A stretch of 10,000 nucleotides of DNA, taken from IMG/VR virus record IMGVR_UViG_2690316285_000012; one strand, given 5' to 3'. A program made the translations under genes and the position numbers. Positions 114 to 9,030 of the stretch are shown one piece after another. The DNA comes from a virus (Duplodnaviria > Heunggongvirae > Uroviricota > Caudoviricetes). Numbering within the stretch: position 1 is the first letter of the stretch; each line of letters begins with the position of its first letter. The notes beneath the pieces were generated by a model. It was not told the DNA's origin, did no database searches, and was given only the letters and a program-made list of their open reading frames with translations.

Positions 114-748
114 TCATTTTCTCTGGCTGATCTTTACCGGATAACCATCCCGAAGATCAATTAAGTGCTCCGGTTCAGAAGCAAACCATGCATAAGATCC
201 CCACGCCAATTCTGGTATTGCCTTTTTAAAAGGCAGAGCACTTCTGTCCATAAATGCCGTAAGGAATGCAAGATTTTTCTCGCTGAACCCAGCGTCAATA
301 GCCAAATGAGTGAGAGTAACTTTTCGTTCCCTGTTTATAGGCCCATCTGTCGCAACTACTTCAGTGAAAACTACAAGCATGTCCGAACCCGTTCGGTCCT
401 CTCCCAAATCAATCAAAATAATATCTGGAAGTGCTTTTGAGGCATCAATATTCAGCCCCAATGCTTTTGCCAATACATCATCCTGAGCAACAACTTTATT
501 CCCGGATTCAGACAACCAGAGCACAGTTGGATTCTTAAGAAAATTAGGAGCAAAAACTTCGATGACGGCCTTAGCTATTGTACTTGACGGGCCCGGAGCT
601 AAAGTTCTCTTCTCTCCATTTGGGAAAGTGACGACTACGACATCAGCAGCAATCACTGCCCCTGATTTCAATAAACGCAACCTAGCAAGAGCGGCTTTGT
701 TCAAATGATTTTCTTGCCAGGAACTTATTGCACTCAGCAGCGAATCTC
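114..748 (-). CDS. Putative type II restriction endonuclease, C-terminal portion (BsuBI/PstI-like candidate); 5' end lies in masked block
   Basis: ORF-track ORF 114..704 (TTG start) is open upstream to the mask at 748. Sits directly downstream and co-directional with the MTase. Has an acidic PD...D/E-type stretch (LPDIILIDLGEDRTG...VVFTEVV). Family assignment is from memory of motif patterns, not a search. Confidence 0.5.
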
Positions 749-749
749 C

Positions 750-1187
750 NNNNNNNNNNNNNNNNNNNNNNNNNNNNNNNNNNNNNNNNNNNNNNNNNNN
801 NNNNNNNNNNNNNNNNNNNNNNNNNNNNNNNNNNNNNNNNNNNNNNNNNNNNNNNNNNNNNNNNNNNNNNNNNNNNNNNNNNNNNNNNNNNNNNNNNNNN
901 NNNNNNNNNNNNNNNNNNNNNNNNNNNNNNNNNNNNNNNNNNNNNNNNNNNNNNNNNNNNNNNNNNNNNNNNNNNNNNNNNNNNNNNNNNNNNNNNNNNN
1001 NNNNNNNNNNNNNNNNNNNNNNNNNNNNNNNNNNNNNNNNNNNNNNNNNNNNNNNNNNNNNNNNNNNNNNNNNNNNNNNNNNNNNNNNNNNNNNNNNNNN
1101 NNNNNNNNNNNNNNNNNNNNNNNNNNNNNNNNNNNNNNNNNNNNNNNNNNNNNNNNNNNNNNNNNNNNNNNNNNNNNNNNNNNNNNN
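750..1187. other. N-masked block (438 nt); further blocks at 1459-1728, 2591-3258, 5302-5714, 5885-6180
   Basis: Runs of n in the sequence. Any ORF segment shown as X in the track is unknown sequence. Confidence 1.
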
Positions 1188-1359
1188 TGGGCCTTATCCA
1201 TCGCCCCAGCCCCTCAACCGCACCAGCATAAAACATGACAAAAATTGTTTTTGCAGCTATTTCCCGAATTAAATATCCACGATTCTCAGTCCCTTCAGGG
1301 AAAATTAATTGTAATCTTTCCCGGATAACATTCAATGGGGGAACAACAGGCAGATTCAT
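1188..1359 (-). CDS. 5' portion of the restriction endonuclease gene, or a separate small gene; continues into masked block
   Basis: ATG at 1359, 63 nt downstream of the MTase stop; visible 57 codons MNLPVVPPLNVIRERLQLIFPEGTENRGYLIREIAAKTIFVMFYAGAVEG... Frame is offset by one relative to the 114..748 ORF. Confidence 0.4.
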
Positions 1360-1422
1360 GCAATCATCACTCCATAGAAACCAGCGATAGTTCTCTCAAT
1401 AATCCGTCTGTGGACGCCAGCA

Positions 1423-3450
1423 TCAATTAACGATTGAATCTCCATCACCTGCTCCAGANNNNNNNNNNNNNNNNNNNNNNNNNNNNNNNNNNNNNNNNNN
1501 NNNNNNNNNNNNNNNNNNNNNNNNNNNNNNNNNNNNNNNNNNNNNNNNNNNNNNNNNNNNNNNNNNNNNNNNNNNNNNNNNNNNNNNNNNNNNNNNNNNN
1601 NNNNNNNNNNNNNNNNNNNNNNNNNNNNNNNNNNNNNNNNNNNNNNNNNNNNNNNNNNNNNNNNNNNNNNNNNNNNNNNNNNNNNNNNNNNNNNNNNNNN
1701 NNNNNNNNNNNNNNNNNNNNNNNNNNNNCTGAGGTAAAATTGCCGCTAAAATCCTTCTGTCCTGTTCCTTCGATGTTGTCCGCTGAACAAGCACACATTC
1801 AGATTTTGTCACAAGGAAACCCTGTTGTGGGGTTATATCGATATAGGGAACATGATTTTTTCTGTCTGCACTAAAACGAAAACCAGCTGAAGTTATTGAT
1901 TCCGCCCAGACTAATGGGTAGCTATTTTTTCCTTTCGTCGTACGCAACTGCGACTTAAATCGATTCCAGACTAACTGACCTGTAGAGACTGAGTATCCCA
2001 GATCAGCTAAACGCGTAGACATCTGTTTTAATACATTAAGAAAACAGGCATCATCTTTAACGCGTGGCAAAAGCCACGTTGCTCCACCTTTTTCTATATC
2101 AACATTACCTATTTTCTCAATTTTTGCTTTGTTCAACCCCTTAGGGACAAGTGAGGATACCTGGGCCCGAACTTTATGTTCTCCCGCCTTGAATGCTGTC
2201 AACATTGTTTCCTGGAGAACATCGTCAAAGACCCCATCCCTGTCAGTGACGAAATCAAGGGCATACGGAGTAGTTTTTTCGGTCAAAAGGGTTCGCAGCG
2301 CGGTGAAATACTGCCCACCAAGAAAAGAAGTTGGCGTAAGAAATGCAATAACTCCTGTTTTCTCTTTAACCATGCGAACAGCTAAGTCGGTGAACAATCC
2401 ATATAGATTTGCATGACCAAATAACGAACGAGAATATTTTTCTCTCGTTTTAATATCGAGAGTGACACGTCCGTAAGGCGGATTCCCTACCACAAGATCA
2501 TAACCAGAAAATTTATCTTGCTGAAGCGCATCAGCAACAATAATTGTATCTTCAGGCAATCTACGTTTTACCTTTACACATAGTGGCATTNNNNNNNNNN
2601 NNNNNNNNNNNNNNNNNNNNNNNNNNNNNNNNNNNNNNNNNNNNNNNNNNNNNNNNNNNNNNNNNNNNNNNNNNNNNNNNNNNNNNNNNNNNNNNNNNNN
2701 NNNNNNNNNNNNNNNNNNNNNNNNNNNNNNNNNNNNNNNNNNNNNNNNNNNNNNNNNNNNNNNNNNNNNNNNNNNNNNNNNNNNNNNNNNNNNNNNNNNN
2801 NNNNNNNNNNNNNNNNNNNNNNNNNNNNNNNNNNNNNNNNNNNNNNNNNNNNNNNNNNNNNNNNNNNNNNNNNNNNNNNNNNNNNNNNNNNNNNNNNNNN
2901 NNNNNNNNNNNNNNNNNNNNNNNNNNNNNNNNNNNNNNNNNNNNNNNNNNNNNNNNNNNNNNNNNNNNNNNNNNNNNNNNNNNNNNNNNNNNNNNNNNNN
3001 NNNNNNNNNNNNNNNNNNNNNNNNNNNNNNNNNNNNNNNNNNNNNNNNNNNNNNNNNNNNNNNNNNNNNNNNNNNNNNNNNNNNNNNNNNNNNNNNNNNN
3101 NNNNNNNNNNNNNNNNNNNNNNNNNNNNNNNNNNNNNNNNNNNNNNNNNNNNNNNNNNNNNNNNNNNNNNNNNNNNNNNNNNNNNNNNNNNNNNNNNNNN
3201 NNNNNNNNNNNNNNNNNNNNNNNNNNNNNNNNNNNNNNNNNNNNNNNNNNNNNNNNNNTACGATGCTGAAGCAGTATGAGCGGGCATGCATCAACCTTGA
3301 CTGCCCGGTTTTGTAATTGCCCGCATAACCTTTGGCCATGGCTTTACAAGTTTGATATCTTTCCAGATTAGAAAACTCATTATCTGTAAAAAAATCAAAA
3401 TGTTGCACATTCATAATGTAAAATCCTAATGTATCAAACATGCGGGCCAT
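1423..3450 (-). CDS. N6-adenine DNA methyltransferase (gamma-class, Eco57I/TaqI-like) with target-recognition region; long form about 675 aa if continuous through masks
   Basis: Catalytic motif IV DLVVGNPPYG visible at 2460-2490 region. One uninterrupted frame connects the visible segments 3259-3450, 1729-2590 and 1423-1458 across both masks. Region is AT-rich relative to its neighbours. Confidence 0.75.
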   Translation of the reverse strand: MARMFDTLGFYIMNVQHFDFFTDNEFSNLERYQTCKAMAKGYAGNYKTGQSRLMHARSYCFSIVXXXXXXXXXXXXXXXXXXXXXXXXXXXXXXXXXXXXXXXXXXXXXXXXXXXXXXXXXXXXXXXXXXXXXXXXXXXXXXXXXXXXXXXXXXXXXXXXXXXXXXXXXXXXXXXXXXXXXXXXXXXXXXXXXXXXXXXXXXXXXXXXXXXXXXXXXXXXXXXXXXXXXXXXXXXXXXXXXXXXXXXXXXXXXXXXXXXXXXXXXXXXXXXXXXXXXXXXXXXXXXXMPLCVKVKRRLPEDTIIVADALQQDKFSGYDLVVGNPPYGRVTLDIKTREKYSRSLFGHANLYGLFTDLAVRMVKEKTGVIAFLTPTSFLGGQYFTALRTLLTEKTTPYALDFVTDRDGVFDDVLQETMLTAFKAGEHKVRAQVSSLVPKGLNKAKIEKIGNVDIEKGGATWLLPRVKDDACFLNVLKQMSTRLADLGYSVSTGQLVWNRFKSQLRTTKGKNSYPLVWAESITSAGFRFSADRKNHVPYIDITPQQGFLVTKSECVLVQRTTSKEQDRRILAAILPQXXXXXXXXXXXXXXXXXXXXXXXXXXXXXXXXXXXXXXXXXXXXXXXXXXXXXXXXXXXXXXXXXXXXXXXXXXXXXXXXXXXXXXXXXXSGAGDGDSIVN

Positions 3451-3664: not shown

Positions 3665-4021
3665 TTATTCGGGGCTATATTTTGTCACCCTGCGTATCCG
3701 CGCTTTCGCATTACGCTCAATCTGGATTAGCTTTTCTATATTTTTTCGCCTTTCCCGCTCCTCCTGGCGCAAGAGCCTTACATCATCTGCCAGTCTGGTT
3801 TCTCTTTTCGCCACAGAGAGCATCCAGTCAAATGGCTCCACAACTGCACCGCAAATTTTACAGCGGACCTGACGCTCTTTTTCGTCAACCCGGACAGAGG
3901 CGTGATGGCAATATGGTCTTTCCGATGGCTCATAAAGAAAATTAACCTGATTACGAGGGTTATCCTCTTTTACCGGAAATAAAACAATATTGCTTAACTC
4001 ATCTTCTGGTTTTATTTCCAT
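3665..4021 (-). CDS. Hypothetical phage protein (118 aa) with putative zinc-ribbon (C-H-H...C-x2-C) and basic coiled-coil C-terminus
   Basis: ATG at 4021 preceded by AAAGGAGAGGAGC Shine-Dalgarno. Motif YCHHASV...CKICG; C-terminus rich in R/K/E. Last gene of a compact three-gene block. Confidence 0.55.
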   Translation of the reverse strand: MEIKPEDELSNIVLFPVKEDNPRNQVNFLYEPSERPYCHHASVRVDEKERQVRCKICGAVVEPFDWMLSVAKRETRLADDVRLLRQEERERRKNIEKLIQIERNAKARIRRVTKYSPE

Positions 4022-4078
4022 GCTCCTCTCCTTTGATGCGAATGCCAGCGGTAATTGAAGCCTGATAGCTAATTTCAC

Positions 4079-4501
4079 TCACAGTACCGCCTCCTGAAAA
4101 TCACCCTGATAGAAAGCCGGTACACGCTGCATAACTTCACTCTTCCGGCACTCGCGACAGATTATGTTCTGATGTCTGTCGTAGCGGCGTATTTCTCCGT
4201 CTGGTAATGACCAGATAAGGTCCGGATCAACCACAGATGGTTTCTTCAGCTTTGCCCTCGAGAGTTTTTTGCGGGCGTTTTGCCAGTCCTTACGAGCCTG
4301 TTCAGACGGGAATAACCCGTAGCCAGAGTTGTATACATCCCCACTGGCAACCAGCTCTCTGGCGAGAACGCTTATTAAATATCTTGTCGCCCCGGTTTTA
4401 GCTTCCAGTTGTCGTAACGTCTCGCGCCCACTCTGGCGTACGAGTTCAACAACCTGCCCCTTAATTTTTTCCCGCTCTTCCTGTGTAAATACTTTTGCCA
4501 T
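4079..4501 (-). CDS. Hypothetical phage protein (140 aa) with HTH-like N-terminal segment
   Basis: ATG at 4501 preceded by GGGGG-rich RBS. Upstream gene stop at 4517 and downstream start at 4021 give tight operon packing. Segment ETLRQLEAKTGATRYLISVLAREL resembles a helix-turn-helix. Confidence 0.55.
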   Translation of the reverse strand: MAKVFTQEEREKIKGQVVELVRQSGRETLRQLEAKTGATRYLISVLARELVASGDVYNSGYGLFPSEQARKDWQNARKKLSRAKLKKPSVVDPDLIWSLPDGEIRRYDRHQNIICRECRKSEVMQRVPAFYQGDFQEAVL

Positions 4502-4516
4502 AAGCGCCCCCGGCAA

Positions 4517-5242
4517 TCACTTTTCCGACACAATACGACCGGAGGAATCGACAATCTGTCGAACAATATCCCGGTGCTTGTTCAGCTCCCGCAACGCGGC
4601 GCAGACACGCTCCCACTTCTGGACATGACTTTTCGCCCGACGCAGTTCGCGGTTTGCCATATGCAGCGATGGTAAAACCAGGTCATCCGCTTGCGTTTCG
4701 GTGAACGATGGCAACGACTGCACAATGTCCGCCACAGTTTCTGTTTTAATTTCTTCCTGTGTTGCAGCTTCCTGTACCGGTAACGCAACACCTGCTGGCT
4801 GAGGAAAGACTTTACCATCCGTTTCCGCTATGGATGCGGCTTTCGGCTCTGCCGGTAAATCAGCGCCCGGTATGCAGTACCGAAATTTACCGCCCTGATT
4901 CACGCGAATCAGACGCCCTTTGCTGATTGCCATGGCCAGCGATGAATTCGCCCGGCGGGAGGTAATCCCGAACATCAGTGCCAGCTCATCCGCCGTTTGT
5001 GGGCCATGTTGTTCAATCGCCTCAGTCAGCATTTGCGCTGTCACTTTCGGTACCGGTGACACTGGTTCACTTTCACCAGCCTGAATCAGCCACCACATCG
5101 AACCCTTGTTATCCGCTTCACCACGGCGCTTCAGTTTCCACAGTTCGTTGACCGCATCTTCACGGCTGATTCCAAGGCGGGACGCCACCACATGTGAAGA
5201 GGCTCTTTTCAGTGCTTTCAGTGCGTCAAATACAGTTTCCAT
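4517..5242 (-). CDS. Hypothetical phage protein (241 aa), two predicted winged-helix-like segments
   Basis: ATG at 5242 with GGAGG 8 nt upstream (ORF-track TTG start at 5260 also possible). Starts about 27 nt after the DnaC-like stop. GC-rich like the replication genes. Confidence 0.6.
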
Positions 5243-5268
5243 TAAAACATCCTCCAACAAAAATTACT

Positions 5269-5884
5269 TCACAACTCCCGGAAAGCTGACATTTGAACGC
5301 CNNNNNNNNNNNNNNNNNNNNNNNNNNNNNNNNNNNNNNNNNNNNNNNNNNNNNNNNNNNNNNNNNNNNNNNNNNNNNNNNNNNNNNNNNNNNNNNNNNN
5401 NNNNNNNNNNNNNNNNNNNNNNNNNNNNNNNNNNNNNNNNNNNNNNNNNNNNNNNNNNNNNNNNNNNNNNNNNNNNNNNNNNNNNNNNNNNNNNNNNNNN
5501 NNNNNNNNNNNNNNNNNNNNNNNNNNNNNNNNNNNNNNNNNNNNNNNNNNNNNNNNNNNNNNNNNNNNNNNNNNNNNNNNNNNNNNNNNNNNNNNNNNNN
5601 NNNNNNNNNNNNNNNNNNNNNNNNNNNNNNNNNNNNNNNNNNNNNNNNNNNNNNNNNNNNNNNNNNNNNNNNNNNNNNNNNNNNNNNNNNNNNNNNNNNN
5701 NNNNNNNNNNNNNNTACCCATCGCCGCTGCAAGGTGATTTTTCCCGGTGCCGGTTTTACCGCTGAACACAAAATTCGTGCACCCGGTCATCAGTTCGTCA
5801 GCTATGGATTTGGCCTGGCTCAGCGCGTATTTTTGCCCGTCGTTCTGCACCTGATAATTCGCAAACGAGCATTTGCTGTGCAGA
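5269..5884 (-). CDS. DnaC-family AAA+ helicase loader (phage P-analog / YdaV-like); 5' end in masked block
   Basis: Visible stretch KCSFANYQVQNDGQKYALSQAKSIADELMTGCTNFVFSGKTGTGKNHLAAAMG closely parallels the E. coli DnaC Walker A region (FSGKPGTGKNHLAAA). Frame stays open upstream into mask 5885-6180; same frame ends at 5269 after mask 5302-5714. Confidence 0.75.
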
Positions 5885-6180
5885 NNNNNNNNNNNNNNNN
5901 NNNNNNNNNNNNNNNNNNNNNNNNNNNNNNNNNNNNNNNNNNNNNNNNNNNNNNNNNNNNNNNNNNNNNNNNNNNNNNNNNNNNNNNNNNNNNNNNNNNN
6001 NNNNNNNNNNNNNNNNNNNNNNNNNNNNNNNNNNNNNNNNNNNNNNNNNNNNNNNNNNNNNNNNNNNNNNNNNNNNNNNNNNNNNNNNNNNNNNNNNNNN
6101 NNNNNNNNNNNNNNNNNNNNNNNNNNNNNNNNNNNNNNNNNNNNNNNNNNNNNNNNNNNNNNNNNNNNNNNNNNNNNNNN

Positions 6181-7157
6181 AACCAGGGGTTTTCAAAATT
6201 CCGGTCCGGCCCAAAAAACGTCGTCGCTCGCTGAACAAATTCCGTTCCCGCTTTCCCGGTCGCCGCCAGGTATCTCGCGTAACGCCTCACACCATCCAGC
6301 ATGGTCTCTGGTGGCACCCCCTCGCGCAATCTGGCCTTCCAGGCACTGAATGCGGATTTCTTCGGGTTTGCCCCGGCACGCAACGGGTATTCCCGCCAGA
6401 CCTGTTCGAACACATCCGGATAATCCACTCGTCCCACAGGCTGCCCGGTGTTTTCCGGGGCTACCCGATCGGCTTCCCGCTGAATGGCGGAATCGGCTTC
6501 AGGCTGCTGCAGTTGGAGTGATTGCTCCGGCCTTGCGGTCATCACCTGCTGCACAGCGCCCGAATCGGCTTTCAGCGCATACGCTGAATCGGCTTCCGGT
6601 GTCGAGCCTGCTGGCTGACCAGGATTGACGGTCTGAACATCCCCTGCCTGGTTCGTGGCGTTTTTTACGCCATGGACCATAGTGTTTTGATCTTCTTTAT
6701 CTGTATCTTTATCTGTATCTGTCGTGACTCGTCGTGACATGTGCGTGACATTTCGTGACGCGCCGTGACAATCGCCATTTTGTTCCCGCTTTCTTTCCCT
6801 CTCTCGCTGCGCCCTCTTGCGCTCTGCAGGAGATTTTGCGGTTTGCGAAATATTGCCGTTGTCCTCTTTAAGCACCTGGCGTTTTTCCCATCCAGTGATT
6901 AAATCACCATCAAGTACCCGCCCCTGCATCGTCTGCAAAATTGAATCAATTACCTCTTCTGTCACGTCGAGCGCACTTGCCAAATCTTCTGTCGTGACAT
7001 CAATGTGACCTCGCGTGACATTTCGTGACGCGCTCACCAGGAGGTGGATATACACTGCCATCACTGTTGCAATTGGCTGCCCTGACACCCTGGCAATTGT
7101 TCGCCACTTAGGGTCATTTGGCATGTCATGCCATAATCTGAGCCAGGCGTTAGCCAT
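6181..7157 (-). CDS. Phage replication initiator / replisome organizer (lambda O analog); 3' end in masked block
   Basis: ATG at 7157 preceded by GAGGTGA RBS (ORF-track GTG at 7163). N-terminal HTH-like region MANAWLRLWHDMPNDPKWRTIARVSGQPIATV. Iteron repeats lie inside the gene and it sits immediately upstream of the DnaC-like gene. Confidence 0.7.
6694..6717. repeat. Perfect tandem duplication of 12-bp unit TCTTTATCTGTA (AT-rich), adjacent to the iterons
   Basis: 6694-6705 and 6706-6717 are identical. Encodes the low-complexity TDKDTDKD linker of the initiator on the minus strand. Confidence 0.7.
6721..6769. repeat. Iteron cluster 1: five CGTGAC repeats at roughly 10-11 bp spacing (putative origin)
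   Basis: CGTGAC at 6723, 6733, 6744, 6754, 6764, about one helical turn apart, flanked by the AT-rich tandem repeat at 6694-6717. Confidence 0.6.
6961..7033. repeat. Iteron cluster 2: four (C/T)GTGAC repeats at 10-11 bp spacing plus one inverted copy
   Basis: CGTGAC/TGTGAC at 6993, 7004, 7014, 7024; inverted GTCACG at 6961-6966. The 21-mer GCGTGACATTTCGTGACGCGC at 7013-7033 is identical to 6743-6763. Confidence 0.6.
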
Positions 7158-7228
7158 ACTCACCTCTTCTGATACCGAATCTTTTTACTCACGAGTTGCC
7201 GGGAGCGATTCGATATGGCTATTGTCAG

Positions 7229-7654
7229 TCAATGTACTGCCACAGCATTTCCTGCCGGGCCACCACGGTTCATCTGATTGAAACCGGCGATTGCCACTGC
7301 GACAAAATCATCAGCGTCTCTCACCAGTCGTTCATGCGTCTCCACCAGTTCCCGAAAATAAGCTGAACTGTGGCTGCGCATTCGAGCCACCAGCGGAGGT
7401 GGCATTGCCCTTTCGATCGCAGGTAACAACGCCTGAATTTTTTCAACAGCGTCAGGGGTGTCTTTATCCAGCCAACGGAAAATCTTTTGGGTGTTGAGAT
7501 AAAGCGTGTTGTGCTTGCTGTCGTTATGCAGAACCGGAAACGTCATTCCCAGTTCGAAATAAACCCTGGTTATTTCAGCTGCCGGAACTTTTTCACCGTC
7601 CGGATGCGCCCAGGCTTTCATCGCCATGCGGATGTGTTCATGCTTGATTTTCAT
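7229..7654 (-). CDS. ydaT: YdaT-like protein (proposed cII analog / toxic prophage regulator), 141 aa
   Basis: ATG at 7654 overlaps the upstream gene stop (ATGA). N-terminus MKIKHEHI and the size match recalled Rac YdaT. Position is Cro-like gene, then this gene, then replication genes. Confidence 0.65.
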   Translation of the reverse strand: MKIKHEHIRMAMKAWAHPDGEKVPAAEITRVYFELGMTFPVLHNDSKHNTLYLNTQKIFRWLDKDTPDAVEKIQALLPAIERAMPPPLVARMRSHSSAYFRELVETHERLVRDADDFVAVAIAGFNQMNRGGPAGNAVAVH

Positions 7655-7914
7655 GAATCAACCCCCGCCGATGGTTGTGTGTTAGCCTGAAACTCAGCAG
7701 GCAAGCCGTCAGTTGGGTTGGGGTAGGTTTTACTGTCAATCTCATGTGGGGTCACCACCCATCCCGTTGCTTCACACCAACGTAATATTTTTTCTCCTGT
7801 AAGTTTTGCACGCCCCGTTATAACGTGGCTGACCATCCCTTGGGATGCGCCAACAATCTCAGCAAATGAACTCTGGGTTATATGAAAATGATGCAAATAT
7901 TCTCCAAGATTCAT
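7651..7914 (-). CDS. ydaS: Cro-like HTH protein (YdaS-like), 87 aa from ATG 7914
   Basis: HTH segment SSFAEIVGASQGMVSHVITGRAKLTGEKI. Divergent from the repressor gene and first gene of the rightward operon. ATG 7914 has an AGGGCGG RBS; ORF-track TTG start at 7941 is the alternative. Symbol assigned by synteny with Rac. Confidence 0.6.
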   Translation of the reverse strand: MNLGEYLHHFHITQSSFAEIVGASQGMVSHVITGRAKLTGEKILRWCEATGWVVTPHEIDSKTYPNPTDGLPAEFQANTQPSAGVDS

Positions 7915-7948
7915 AATCCGCCCTATGTGATGTGTTACCAATGCATAA

Positions 7949-7990: not shown

Positions 7991-8018
7991 TCAAAGTGAT
8001 TAGCAATCTTATTAGAAT
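7990..8018 (+). promoter_or_regulatory. Candidate PRM-like promoter for the repressor gene (-35 TTCAAA 7990-7995, -10 TAGAAT 8013-8018)
   Basis: 17-bp spacer. Predicted start site falls at or just before the ATG at 8026, implying a leaderless or near-leaderless mRNA. Abuts operator 7976-7990. Confidence 0.3.
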
Positions 8019-8025
8019 TGGATGT

Positions 8026-8526
8026 ATGAAAAGAAAATCATTGTCAGACACCGACCTCAACGCCGCCAGAAGACTGAAAGAAATCTGGATGGCAAAGAAA
8101 TCTCAGTTGGGATTGACTCAGGAACGTGCGGCGGAAATTATGGGGTTTTCAACACAAGGGGCGGTAAGTCACTACCTAAATGGTCAAACCCCACTAAACC
8201 TTGAGGCTGTTCTAAAGTTTGCTGGCTTACTGAAAGTTCCCCCTGAGTCAATCAGGCCAGACATGGTAGATTTGCTGCAAATTGCAAGGATGTATTGTCG
8301 AGAACCACAGCAAGATAACATAGTCGCATTACCAGCAGACACAGAACAAACAGAGGATGAACTACCGTTTGCCGTAGAGCCGATGGAACGAGATTTAATC
8401 CATACGTTCAGAGCTTTTCCGAAAGAAGATCAAGAACACATGCTTCAGGAGATGAAAGATAAAAAAGAATCAATGGATCGTACGGTTGCGCGGTGGTTAG
8501 CTGCACAAAAAGGCCGTCGCGCCTAA
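8026..8526 (+). CDS. paaR2: Cro/CI-family prophage repressor (RacR/PaaR-type), 166 aa from ATG 8026
   Basis: HTH segment LGLTQERAAEIMGFSTQGAVSHYLNG. Divergent from the Cro-like gene across an operator-containing intergenic region and first gene of a three-gene operon with antitoxin and ParE toxin. No S24 peptidase domain is evident. ORF-track GTG start 7996 is the alternative. Symbol by architecture only. Confidence 0.65.
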   Translation: MKRKSLSDTDLNAARRLKEIWMAKKSQLGLTQERAAEIMGFSTQGAVSHYLNGQTPLNLEAVLKFAGLLKVPPESIRPDMVDLLQIARMYCREPQQDNIVALPADTEQTEDELPFAVEPMERDLIHTFRAFPKEDQEHMLQEMKDKKESMDRTVARWLAAQKGRRA

Positions 8527-8545
8527 ATCAGAGGAGATATGTAAA

Positions 8546-8740
8546 ATGAGTACAGTCCTTTCCCCAATGGTTTCAGAATTTGAGACAGTTGAGCAAGAAA
8601 ATAGTTACAACGAATGGCTGCGGGCCAAAGTAGCAGCAAGCCTCGCGGATCCCCGCCCGGCGATTCCGCATGATGAGGTAATGGCGGAAATGGAACAAAT
8701 TATTGCCCAAATTGCTGCTGCAACTCACAGAGGTGAATAA
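8546..8740 (+). CDS. paaA2: Small antitoxin (PaaA2/ParD-like), 64 aa
   Basis: GAGGAG RBS 9 nt upstream. Stop TAA overlaps the toxin ATG (TAATG). Small acidic protein immediately upstream of a ParE-family toxin. Symbol by architecture and size. Confidence 0.6.
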   Translation: MSTVLSPMVSEFETVEQENSYNEWLRAKVAASLADPRPAIPHDEVMAEMEQIIAQIAAATHRGE

Positions 8741-9030
8741 TGTTACCCGTTTTATGGCTACCATCTGCTCGTGATGATTTGCGCCAGATCGTAGCCTACA
8801 TAGCTAAAGAAAATCCCGCGGCAGCACGCAGAATGAAAATTCGAATTGAAACATCCGTTTTGCCGCTCACAGAGCATCCTTACCTGTATCCTCCAAGCGA
8901 GCGAGTTCTTGGTCTTCGTGAAATTGTAACTCATCCTAACTACATCATCCTTTACCGAGTAACAGCATCAAGCATAGAAGTAGTAAATATTGTGCATTCT
9001 CGAAGACAGTATCCAGGCAAAAACAGTTAA
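8740..9030 (+). CDS. parE2: ParE/RelE-superfamily toxin, 96 aa
   Basis: Typical ParE pattern: W...A..DL..I..YIA.ENPAAA.R....I, then YIILYRV and VVNIVH near the C-terminus. Translationally coupled to the upstream antitoxin. Confidence 0.75.
   Translation: MLPVLWLPSARDDLRQIVAYIAKENPAAARRMKIRIETSVLPLTEHPYLYPPSERVLGLREIVTHPNYIILYRVTASSIEVVNIVHSRRQYPGKNS

Follow-up and report, generated by a model that had tools for sequence, protein, structure and literature searches.

How does a lambdoid prophage mark the point at which its replication starts, and can such a mark be written into the very gene whose product would read it? This question is raised by a 10,000-nucleotide stretch of DNA (IMG/VR record IMGVR_UViG_2690316285_000012; the window, meaning the whole stretch, in what follows), which is a segment of a CP-933P-like lambdoid prophage of Escherichia coli and carries short, regularly spaced repeats within the coding sequence of a replication initiator. 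An earlier note on this DNA had read the repeats as an origin nested in the initiator gene. We consider it quite likely that the region is indeed the replication origin of the prophage, embedded in its own initiator gene, given the context of initiator and loader genes, the phasing of the repeats and the selection acting on them, the joint change of motif in both repeat arrays, the neighboring candidate unwinding element and hairpin, and the precedent set by phages lambda and SPP1. Every prediction of the earlier reading that can be examined in sequence came out positive: the initiator match, DNA-level selection, linked motif change, the AT-rich tract, the hairpin, and a conserved layout.

The hexamer CGTGAC occurs nine times in the 10-kb window, where 2.63 +/- 1.67 copies are expected from shuffled sequences, and all nine copies are confined to 307 bp (6723-7029). 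Since the initiator gene is located on the minus strand, the motif reads GTCACG in the sense of the gene, and of the two groups of repeats previously recognized, the one at higher coordinates is proximal to the promoter (array A; cluster 2 of the earlier note), while the other is distal to it (array B; cluster 1). Array B (6723-6769, minus strand; gene nt 389-435) comprises the five exact copies that had been claimed, starting at 6723, 6733, 6744, 6754, and 6764 with spacings of 10, 11, 10, and 10 bp. Array A (6993-7029, minus strand; gene nt 129-165) had been credited with four copies; the array and its 10-11 bp spacing (11/10/10) are present, but only three copies are exact (6993, 7014, and 7024) and the fourth is a one-mismatch variant, TGTGAC, at 7004-7009. 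In the sense of the gene, array A thus reads GTCACG at nt 129, 139, and 160 and GTCACA at nt 149, and in Pseudomonas and further relatives, the variant position is occupied by an exact GTCACG. A single inverted copy, also noticed before, occupies 6961-6966 on the plus strand (gene nt 192-197, codons D64-V65-T66). Measured from start to start, arrays A and B are 270 bp apart, in agreement with the earlier estimate, and this two-cluster layout is conserved across the family rather than being an accident of the window. Read in the direction of the gene, array A comes first and is followed by the inverted copy, array B, the duplex segment of lowest stability in the gene, and finally a hairpin.

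Do these repeats serve the DNA or the protein? The hexamer is read in all three frames (TCA-CG., GTC-ACG, and G.GT-CAC), and its 10/11-bp period makes a codon repeat impossible. Synonymous sites were compared among 23 homologues of 51-78% amino-acid identity, whose alignment over codons 1-100 is free of gaps. Among conserved degenerate codons, the majority codon has a frequency of 0.98 for the eight codons overlapping array A, compared to 0.52 for the 37 others (Mann-Whitney p=6e-6), and the inverted copy is less conserved than the arrays (majority frequency of 0.70 at codon 64). Close E. coli relatives (96-98% identity) are uninformative on constraint, except for a repeat of variable copy number next to array B. 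As judged from this codon usage, the iterons are under purifying selection at the DNA level. The number of iterons changes by 21 bp, equal to two units or seven codons, as seen in array B between E. coli and Aeromonas (locus L006 compared to the window) and in array A of E. albertii (L011, nt ~150-180). A step of 21 bp keeps the reading frame, which explains the alternation of 10- and 11-bp spacings.

Adjacent to array B lies a purine-skewed, AT-rich tract (6679..6722), a candidate DNA-unwinding element by its duplex stability and by its composition across the family. Within 6181-7400, positions 6679-6718 form the least stable 40-bp duplex (75% AT; dG -43.2 compared to a mean of -57.4 with a standard deviation of 3.7, i.e. 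3.8 standard deviations below the mean). The AT-rich tandem repeat that had been reported beside this array was found again inside the least stable duplex, as 2.2 copies of the 12-bp unit TCTTTATCTGTA (6694-6720, or 6694-6722 when taken as the repeat of variable copy number; GATAAAGATACA in the sense of the gene, encoding the peptide DKDT). In E. coli, the copy number of TCTTTATCTGTA ranges from 2 to 7 and always changes in frame: the window has 2 copies, phage Tritos and strain 2014C-3011 have 3 each, 2013C-4187 has 6, and 2013C-3264 has 7. Across 80 homologous loci, the 48 nt past array B have a mean AT content of 62% (gene, 45%), and purines make up 68% of their sense strand.

Opposite the iterons, the AT-rich tract is flanked by a GC-rich inverted repeat (6649..6679; a stem of 13 positions with 2 mismatches and a 5-nt loop), which is predicted to fold as DNA with -8.7 kcal/mol (z -2.9). 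Hairpins 40-70 nt beyond array B are also present in homologues of unrelated sequence. In L007, L021, L026, L049, L061, L067, L069, L081, L086, and other loci, the stems are unrelated to each other and the 4-nt loops TGAC, TAAC, and TATC recur; this recurrence suggests a conserved structural element. Promoter and terminator scans stayed at chance level except for the hairpin at 6649-6679, and Rfam gave no matches. A different kind of repeat is found at 6467-6599, where GAATCGGCTT-like 10-mers occur four times in a 96-bp in-frame duplication (peptide PEADSA...ADS); with a phasing unlike that of the iterons, it looks like a coding repeat of the variable linker.

What is the protein that would read the repeats? 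The gene in question (6093..7157, minus strand, ATG at 7157) was delimited by translation and by full-length homologues. It is readable from 6181 to 7157 only, as its 3' end lies inside a run of masked (N) positions (5885-6180), and its stop is placed at ~6093 from homologues. Full-length homologues of 356 aa are encoded at locus L002 and in phage Tritos; the L002 protein, almost identical in sequence to what can be read of the window initiator, is matched over its full length by phrog_3729, 'replication initiation protein' (1-356, E 3.2e-255). The C-terminal part of the initiator matches phrog_1701 and is assigned as a DnaD-like C-domain, which completes an architecture of winged-helix N-domain (aa 1-~90), basic helix (110-126), low-complexity linker, and C-domain. 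In an AlphaFold2 model of aa 1-130 (pLDDT 80), three helices and a loop (46-55) are followed by a helix-turn-helix (56-63 and 67-77), a beta wing, a disordered stretch, and the basic helix. NCBI names close homologues 'phage replisome organizer'. TIGR01714 and PF09681 score the N-domain below their curated cut-offs (15.4 vs 49.8 and 12.8 vs 23.3 bits, respectively), and the full-length range of the alignment (5-125 of 119 profile positions) suggests no more than a distant kinship. By its matches to known families, the gene encodes a replication initiator. Some records annotate it as 'primosomal protein I', and its C-terminal 24 aa, masked in the window and readable in L002 (6913-6985), resemble the C-terminus of DnaT (NF002770, E 0.0015, 18 bits compared to a cut-off of 201).

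Downstream of the initiator gene follows a gene for a DnaC/IstB-like AAA+ helicase loader (5340..6086, minus strand; both ends deduced from locus L002). Most of it is masked in the window; the readable fragment (5715-5884) includes the Walker A motif GKTGTGKN and translates to the same protein as the L002 homologue, which matches PF01695 at 2.8e-19. Phage Tritos (L171, 32105-33638) has the same initiator and origin without a DnaC-like gene downstream, and encodes a 140-aa hypothetical protein at this place. Given this arrangement and the label of phrog_1701, 'DnaD-like helicase loader', the initiator may recruit the loader of the host directly.

Projected onto the AlphaFold2 model, array A encodes aa 43-55, where helix 3 ends and the loop preceding the helix-turn-helix follows. 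The codons of the inverted copy fall on the first turn of the predicted recognition helix, and those of array B (aa 130-145) on the start of the interdomain linker, just past the basic helix. A loop, the start of a recognition helix, and the start of a linker are, in this model, likely places to tolerate a sequence imposed by the DNA.

Is the arrangement a property of this prophage or of a family? The 80 loci were retrieved from 185,579 species genomes using peptide patterns of the first 25 residues, a search blind to the repeats, and for each locus we recorded the hexamer with the most 10/11-bp spacings within the first 640 nt. With this periodic score, the window reaches 5 and 66 of the 80 loci reach 2-6, whereas the best of 20 shuffles per locus stayed at 0-1 in 79 loci and at 2 in the remaining one. 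At 59 of the 80 loci, at least two exact copies of one and the same hexamer are found in each of two regions, nt 100-235 and nt 290-520, with the shared-hexamer arrays sitting at gene nt ~130-165 and ~350-440; array B is present in nearly all 80 loci. The inverted copy at nt 192 recurs in 16 of the 28 listed loci with GTCACG, and loci with GCAACG carry the reverse complement of their own motif, CGTTGC, at nt 171 and 201.

Two phages of other hosts illustrate how far the arrangement has been carried. The N-domains of Aeromonas phage pAEv1818 and the D3-like Pseudomonas phage phi1 are ~70% identical to that of the window, and both phages keep the two arrays, the inverted copy, and a (GATAAA)n tract past array B, with array B being conserved in the Aeromonas and Pseudomonas phages despite a diverged linker peptide. 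Their similarity to the E. coli gene ends directly past the (GATAAA)n tract, and the C-domains differ. Partner genes differ as well: phi1 has a 609-aa 'replication protein P' (by annotation), and Ralstonia phage Hennie has DnaB. Given that the arrays stay with the N-domain while C-domains and partners change, N-domain and arrays travel as a single cassette.

The motif itself falls into at least five classes, which track the lineages of the N-domain: GTCACG in Escherichia, Shigella, Aeromonas, Pseudomonas, Bordetella, Serratia, Rahnella, and others; GTAACG in Pantoea, Enterobacter, Marinobacter, and Sphingomonas; CGAACGC in many beta- and alpha-proteobacteria; GCAACG in Ralstonia phage Hennie, Cupriavidus, and Burkholderia; and GTGACG in Paraburkholderia and Caballeronia. 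Arrays A and B switch together. When their motifs were called independently, they agreed at 38 of 53 loci under a strict 4-mer criterion, where permuted pairings averaged 15.8 and never exceeded 27, and most of the non-agreeing loci show the two halves of CGAACGC.

How might such an origin work? From this anatomy, we infer binding of the initiator, unwinding of the AT-rich tract, loading of the helicase, and any cooperation between arrays A and B. The winged-helix N-domain would bind GTCACG units as side-by-side protomers, which the 10-11-bp spacing would place on a single face of the helix. Array B (6723-6769) might constitute the core binding site of the initiator, where cooperative binding and bending would destabilize the AT-rich tract (6679-6722), with the GC-rich hairpin (6649-6679) bounding this tract at its far side. 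The DnaD-like C-domain and the DnaC-like ATPase encoded downstream could then bring the DnaB of the host to the opened DNA. Array A and the inverted copy, some 25 helical turns upstream of array B, would bind the same protein, and most likely contribute to a larger complex, looped or wrapped, or else serve as an auxiliary or regulatory site.

Several points weigh against the origin reading and its proposed mechanism. The clade used for the synonymous-site comparison was selected on two of the four units of array A, which had to contain GTCAC; the units that played no part in this choice show majority-codon frequencies of 0.91-1.00. The N-domain scores above the cut-off of no curated Pfam or NCBIfam family, and a Foldseek search of the PDB returned no close solved relative, only weak matches to generic winged-helix regulators (E>0.3). 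Two of the comparative statistics ignore shared ancestry, namely the longer hairpin stems of homologues (mean of 5.8 compared to 5.0 in control windows, p=3.5e-5) and the clustering of the A-to-B distances, which range from 157 to 350 bp, near multiples of ~10 bp (R=0.66, T=10). Array A is missing while array B is kept in a minority of lineages (e.g. L082, L083, L087, L067, L072, and L076), and its absence from these lineages indicates that array A is not indispensable. The near-10-bp clustering of the A-to-B distances, taken with its limits, hints at looping or wrapping between the arrays. Finally, our literature search, which was incomplete in its coverage so that an earlier account is possible, came upon no report of this origin or of a two-array architecture.

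The lineages that keep array B without array A also lend some weight to a division of labor, in which array B and the AT-rich tract would form the origin and array A with the inverted copy would serve as an autoregulatory operator or as a transcription roadblock, the initiator bound at array A limiting its own synthesis or transcription through the origin. Array A starts just 129 nt into the coding sequence, where a bound protein would block elongation, and it shares its motif with array B and would consequently respond to the concentration of the initiator. The ~10-bp phasing of the A-to-B distances, which holds across differing linker lengths with shared ancestry ignored, fits better with a physical interaction between the arrays than with an independent operator, and regulatory and origin roles of array A are not mutually exclusive. 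We regard a purely regulatory array A as rather unlikely.

A further question is whether the overlap of site and gene has a function of its own. Within an alignment of N-domain residues 1-115, the columns that separate the GTCACG from the CGAACGC class (discrimination >=0.8) cluster at aa 45-56, 65-67, and 101-111, with marginal columns at 31 and 42 (0.80-0.81). Residues 45-56, the loop, are encoded by array A, and 65-67 by the inverted copy. It is a doubtful proposition that the initiator is, in a functionally relevant manner, partly encoded by its own binding sites, such that reader and site share nucleotides; the same clustering might instead be a passive by-product. If residues 45-56 and 65-67 do read the iteron, one nucleotide change in array A would alter the site and its reader together, and in this case the evolution of both would be coupled and switches of specificity eased.

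Could the arrays be bound by a protein other than the initiator, such as a host factor or a partition, packaging, or recombination protein? Two arrays of about five direct repeats of 10-11 bp do resemble centromere-like sites, and parC of plasmid R1, with its two arrays of 11-bp repeats, has a layout similar to that of arrays A and B. However, no partition genes (ParM/ParR or ParA/ParB) are found in the window or in the homologous loci, and the arrays always travel with the sequence coding for the N-domain, while downstream partners change. The motif class follows the lineage of the N-domain and different classes occur in related hosts, which argues against a host factor. Boxes for DnaA (TTWTNCACA) are not enriched either, with no exact match in the window and 19 one-mismatch sites where 17.8 are expected. 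We hold a binder other than the initiator to be very improbable. That the repeats are a by-product of coding, stemming from a low-complexity or duplicated peptide or from functionless slippage, is hardly credible, for although the peptide SRNVT is present in both arrays and the adjacent DKDT repeat varies in copy number by slippage, the period does not follow the reading frame, only under the hexamers are synonymous positions frozen, the motif is kept where its peptide context diverges, and the same architecture recurs with five different motifs; frame and synonymous sites rule out a peptide repeat as the source of the iterons.

How does the putative origin compare with known ones? The origin of lambda consists of four 18-bp iterons joined to a 38-bp AT-rich sequence (PMC3349717) and, as here, is contained in the part of the initiator gene that codes for the stretch joining the DNA-binding N-domain to the C-domain. 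In both cases, repeats bound (or, here, presumed to be bound) by the initiator are followed by a promoter-distal, AT-rich tract for known or, here, presumed strand opening (PMC3349717, PMC12663957), and the gene order is likewise shared, with cI-like, cro-like, cII-like, initiator, and loader genes in succession (PMC8630535). The differences lie in the repeats, which in lambda form one array of 18-bp units, whereas the window has 10-11-bp units with an asymmetric 6-bp core in two arrays plus an inverted copy, and in the partner, which is lambda P in one case and a DnaC/IstB-like loader in the other. The initiator itself is not matched by the Pfam family Phage_rep_O, even at E<=10. Beyond the AT-rich tract, lambda has a palindrome.

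Mid-gene repeats are also visible in gene 38 of phage SPP1. This gene encodes the organizer G38P and contains oriL, in which AB boxes adjoin an AT-rich unwinding element, and G38P binds two separate sites, oriL and oriR, in discrete regions of the SPP1 genome (PMC5737612). The second site is remote in SPP1, whereas the second array described here is located in the same gene, and a remote second cluster comparable to SPP1 oriR or P4 crr was not found: in the complete 46-kb genome of Tritos, arrays A and B are the only clusters of GTCACG. SPP1 oriR lies ~32 kb from oriL. Homology of the initiator to G38P was considered and ruled out (hhalign probability 0.1%).

According to the description of TIGR01714, a low-complexity region past the domain reflects direct repeats in the DNA that can serve as an origin. 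The low-complexity region past the N-domain, with array B and the DKDT repeat, corresponds to this description; to our knowledge, a second array within the coding region of a replisome-organizer N-domain has not been described. Short repeats spaced by about one helical turn and bound by one protein are known from the 11/12-mers of RctB on chromosome II of Vibrio cholerae, from ori and crr of phage P4, and from parC of R1, with P4 and parC each having two separated arrays. The proteins are unrelated and the sites non-coding in these systems, whereas both arrays lie inside coding sequence here. Another prophage origin, oriJ of the Rac prophage of K-12, occupies the same position in the module, past ydaS and ydaT. 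It is mentioned in PMC3945230, and the papers that mention oriJ give no sequence anatomy. Identity with oriJ was ruled out, as YdaU of K-12 is a DUF1376 protein of 285 aa and belongs to another family of initiators. Compared to lambda, the arrangement described here differs, as far as sequence can tell, in having short direct repeats of 10-11 bp and a conserved second array where a loop of the DNA-binding domain is encoded.

An origin inside the initiator gene is a textbook principle, so the gain is incremental unless the idea of a self-encoding site proves real. Nonetheless, a probable origin can now be assigned to a replication module that is very common among E. coli prophages and also present in phages and prophages of many Proteobacteria. 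The at least five natural specificity classes provide ready cognate and non-cognate pairs to study recognition between initiator and iteron as well as the coexistence of a DNA signal with a reading frame. A periodic hexamer at two fixed positions of a gene is a marker that can be used in annotating origins, and the same marker could predict incompatibility of replicons or cross-activation among prophages residing in one cell.

How widespread is the region? Among complete E. coli genomes, 2317 of 5426 contain a match to it, with up to 4 copies per genome, and seven sequenced Escherichia phages, including Tritos and Evi, hold DNA that is 96-98% identical. Database matches to the N-domain are mostly annotated as 'partial', and draft assemblies seem to be often broken in or near the initiator gene. 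Upstream of the initiator gene, the window encodes a YdaT/cII-like protein (7229-7654, minus strand) and a Cro/YdaS-like protein (7651-7941, minus strand), followed on the plus strand by a PaaR2-like helix-turn-helix repressor, the PaaA2 antitoxin, and the ParE2 toxin (7996-9030). The latter genes mark an immunity region of the CP-933P/Sp12 type with an embedded toxin-antitoxin system (cf. PMC8630535). Immunity and replication genes have the same layout in the CP-933P/Sp12 prophage, where the gene following ydaT has been named 'o' by analogy (PMC8630535).

Five runs of the window are masked by N (750-1187, 1459-1728, 2591-3258, 5302-5714, and 5885-6180). Past the replication genes, the window has genes for DUF1627, DUF977, and zinc-ribbon proteins (3665-5260, minus strand), as is the case in other E. 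coli prophages. Within the early region of the prophage, 114-3450 (minus strand, partly masked) encodes an Eco57I-type methylase (1423-3450) and a BsuBI/PstI-type restriction endonuclease, which appears as two open reading frames (114-704 and 682-1359) and is possibly a single gene interrupted by the masking.

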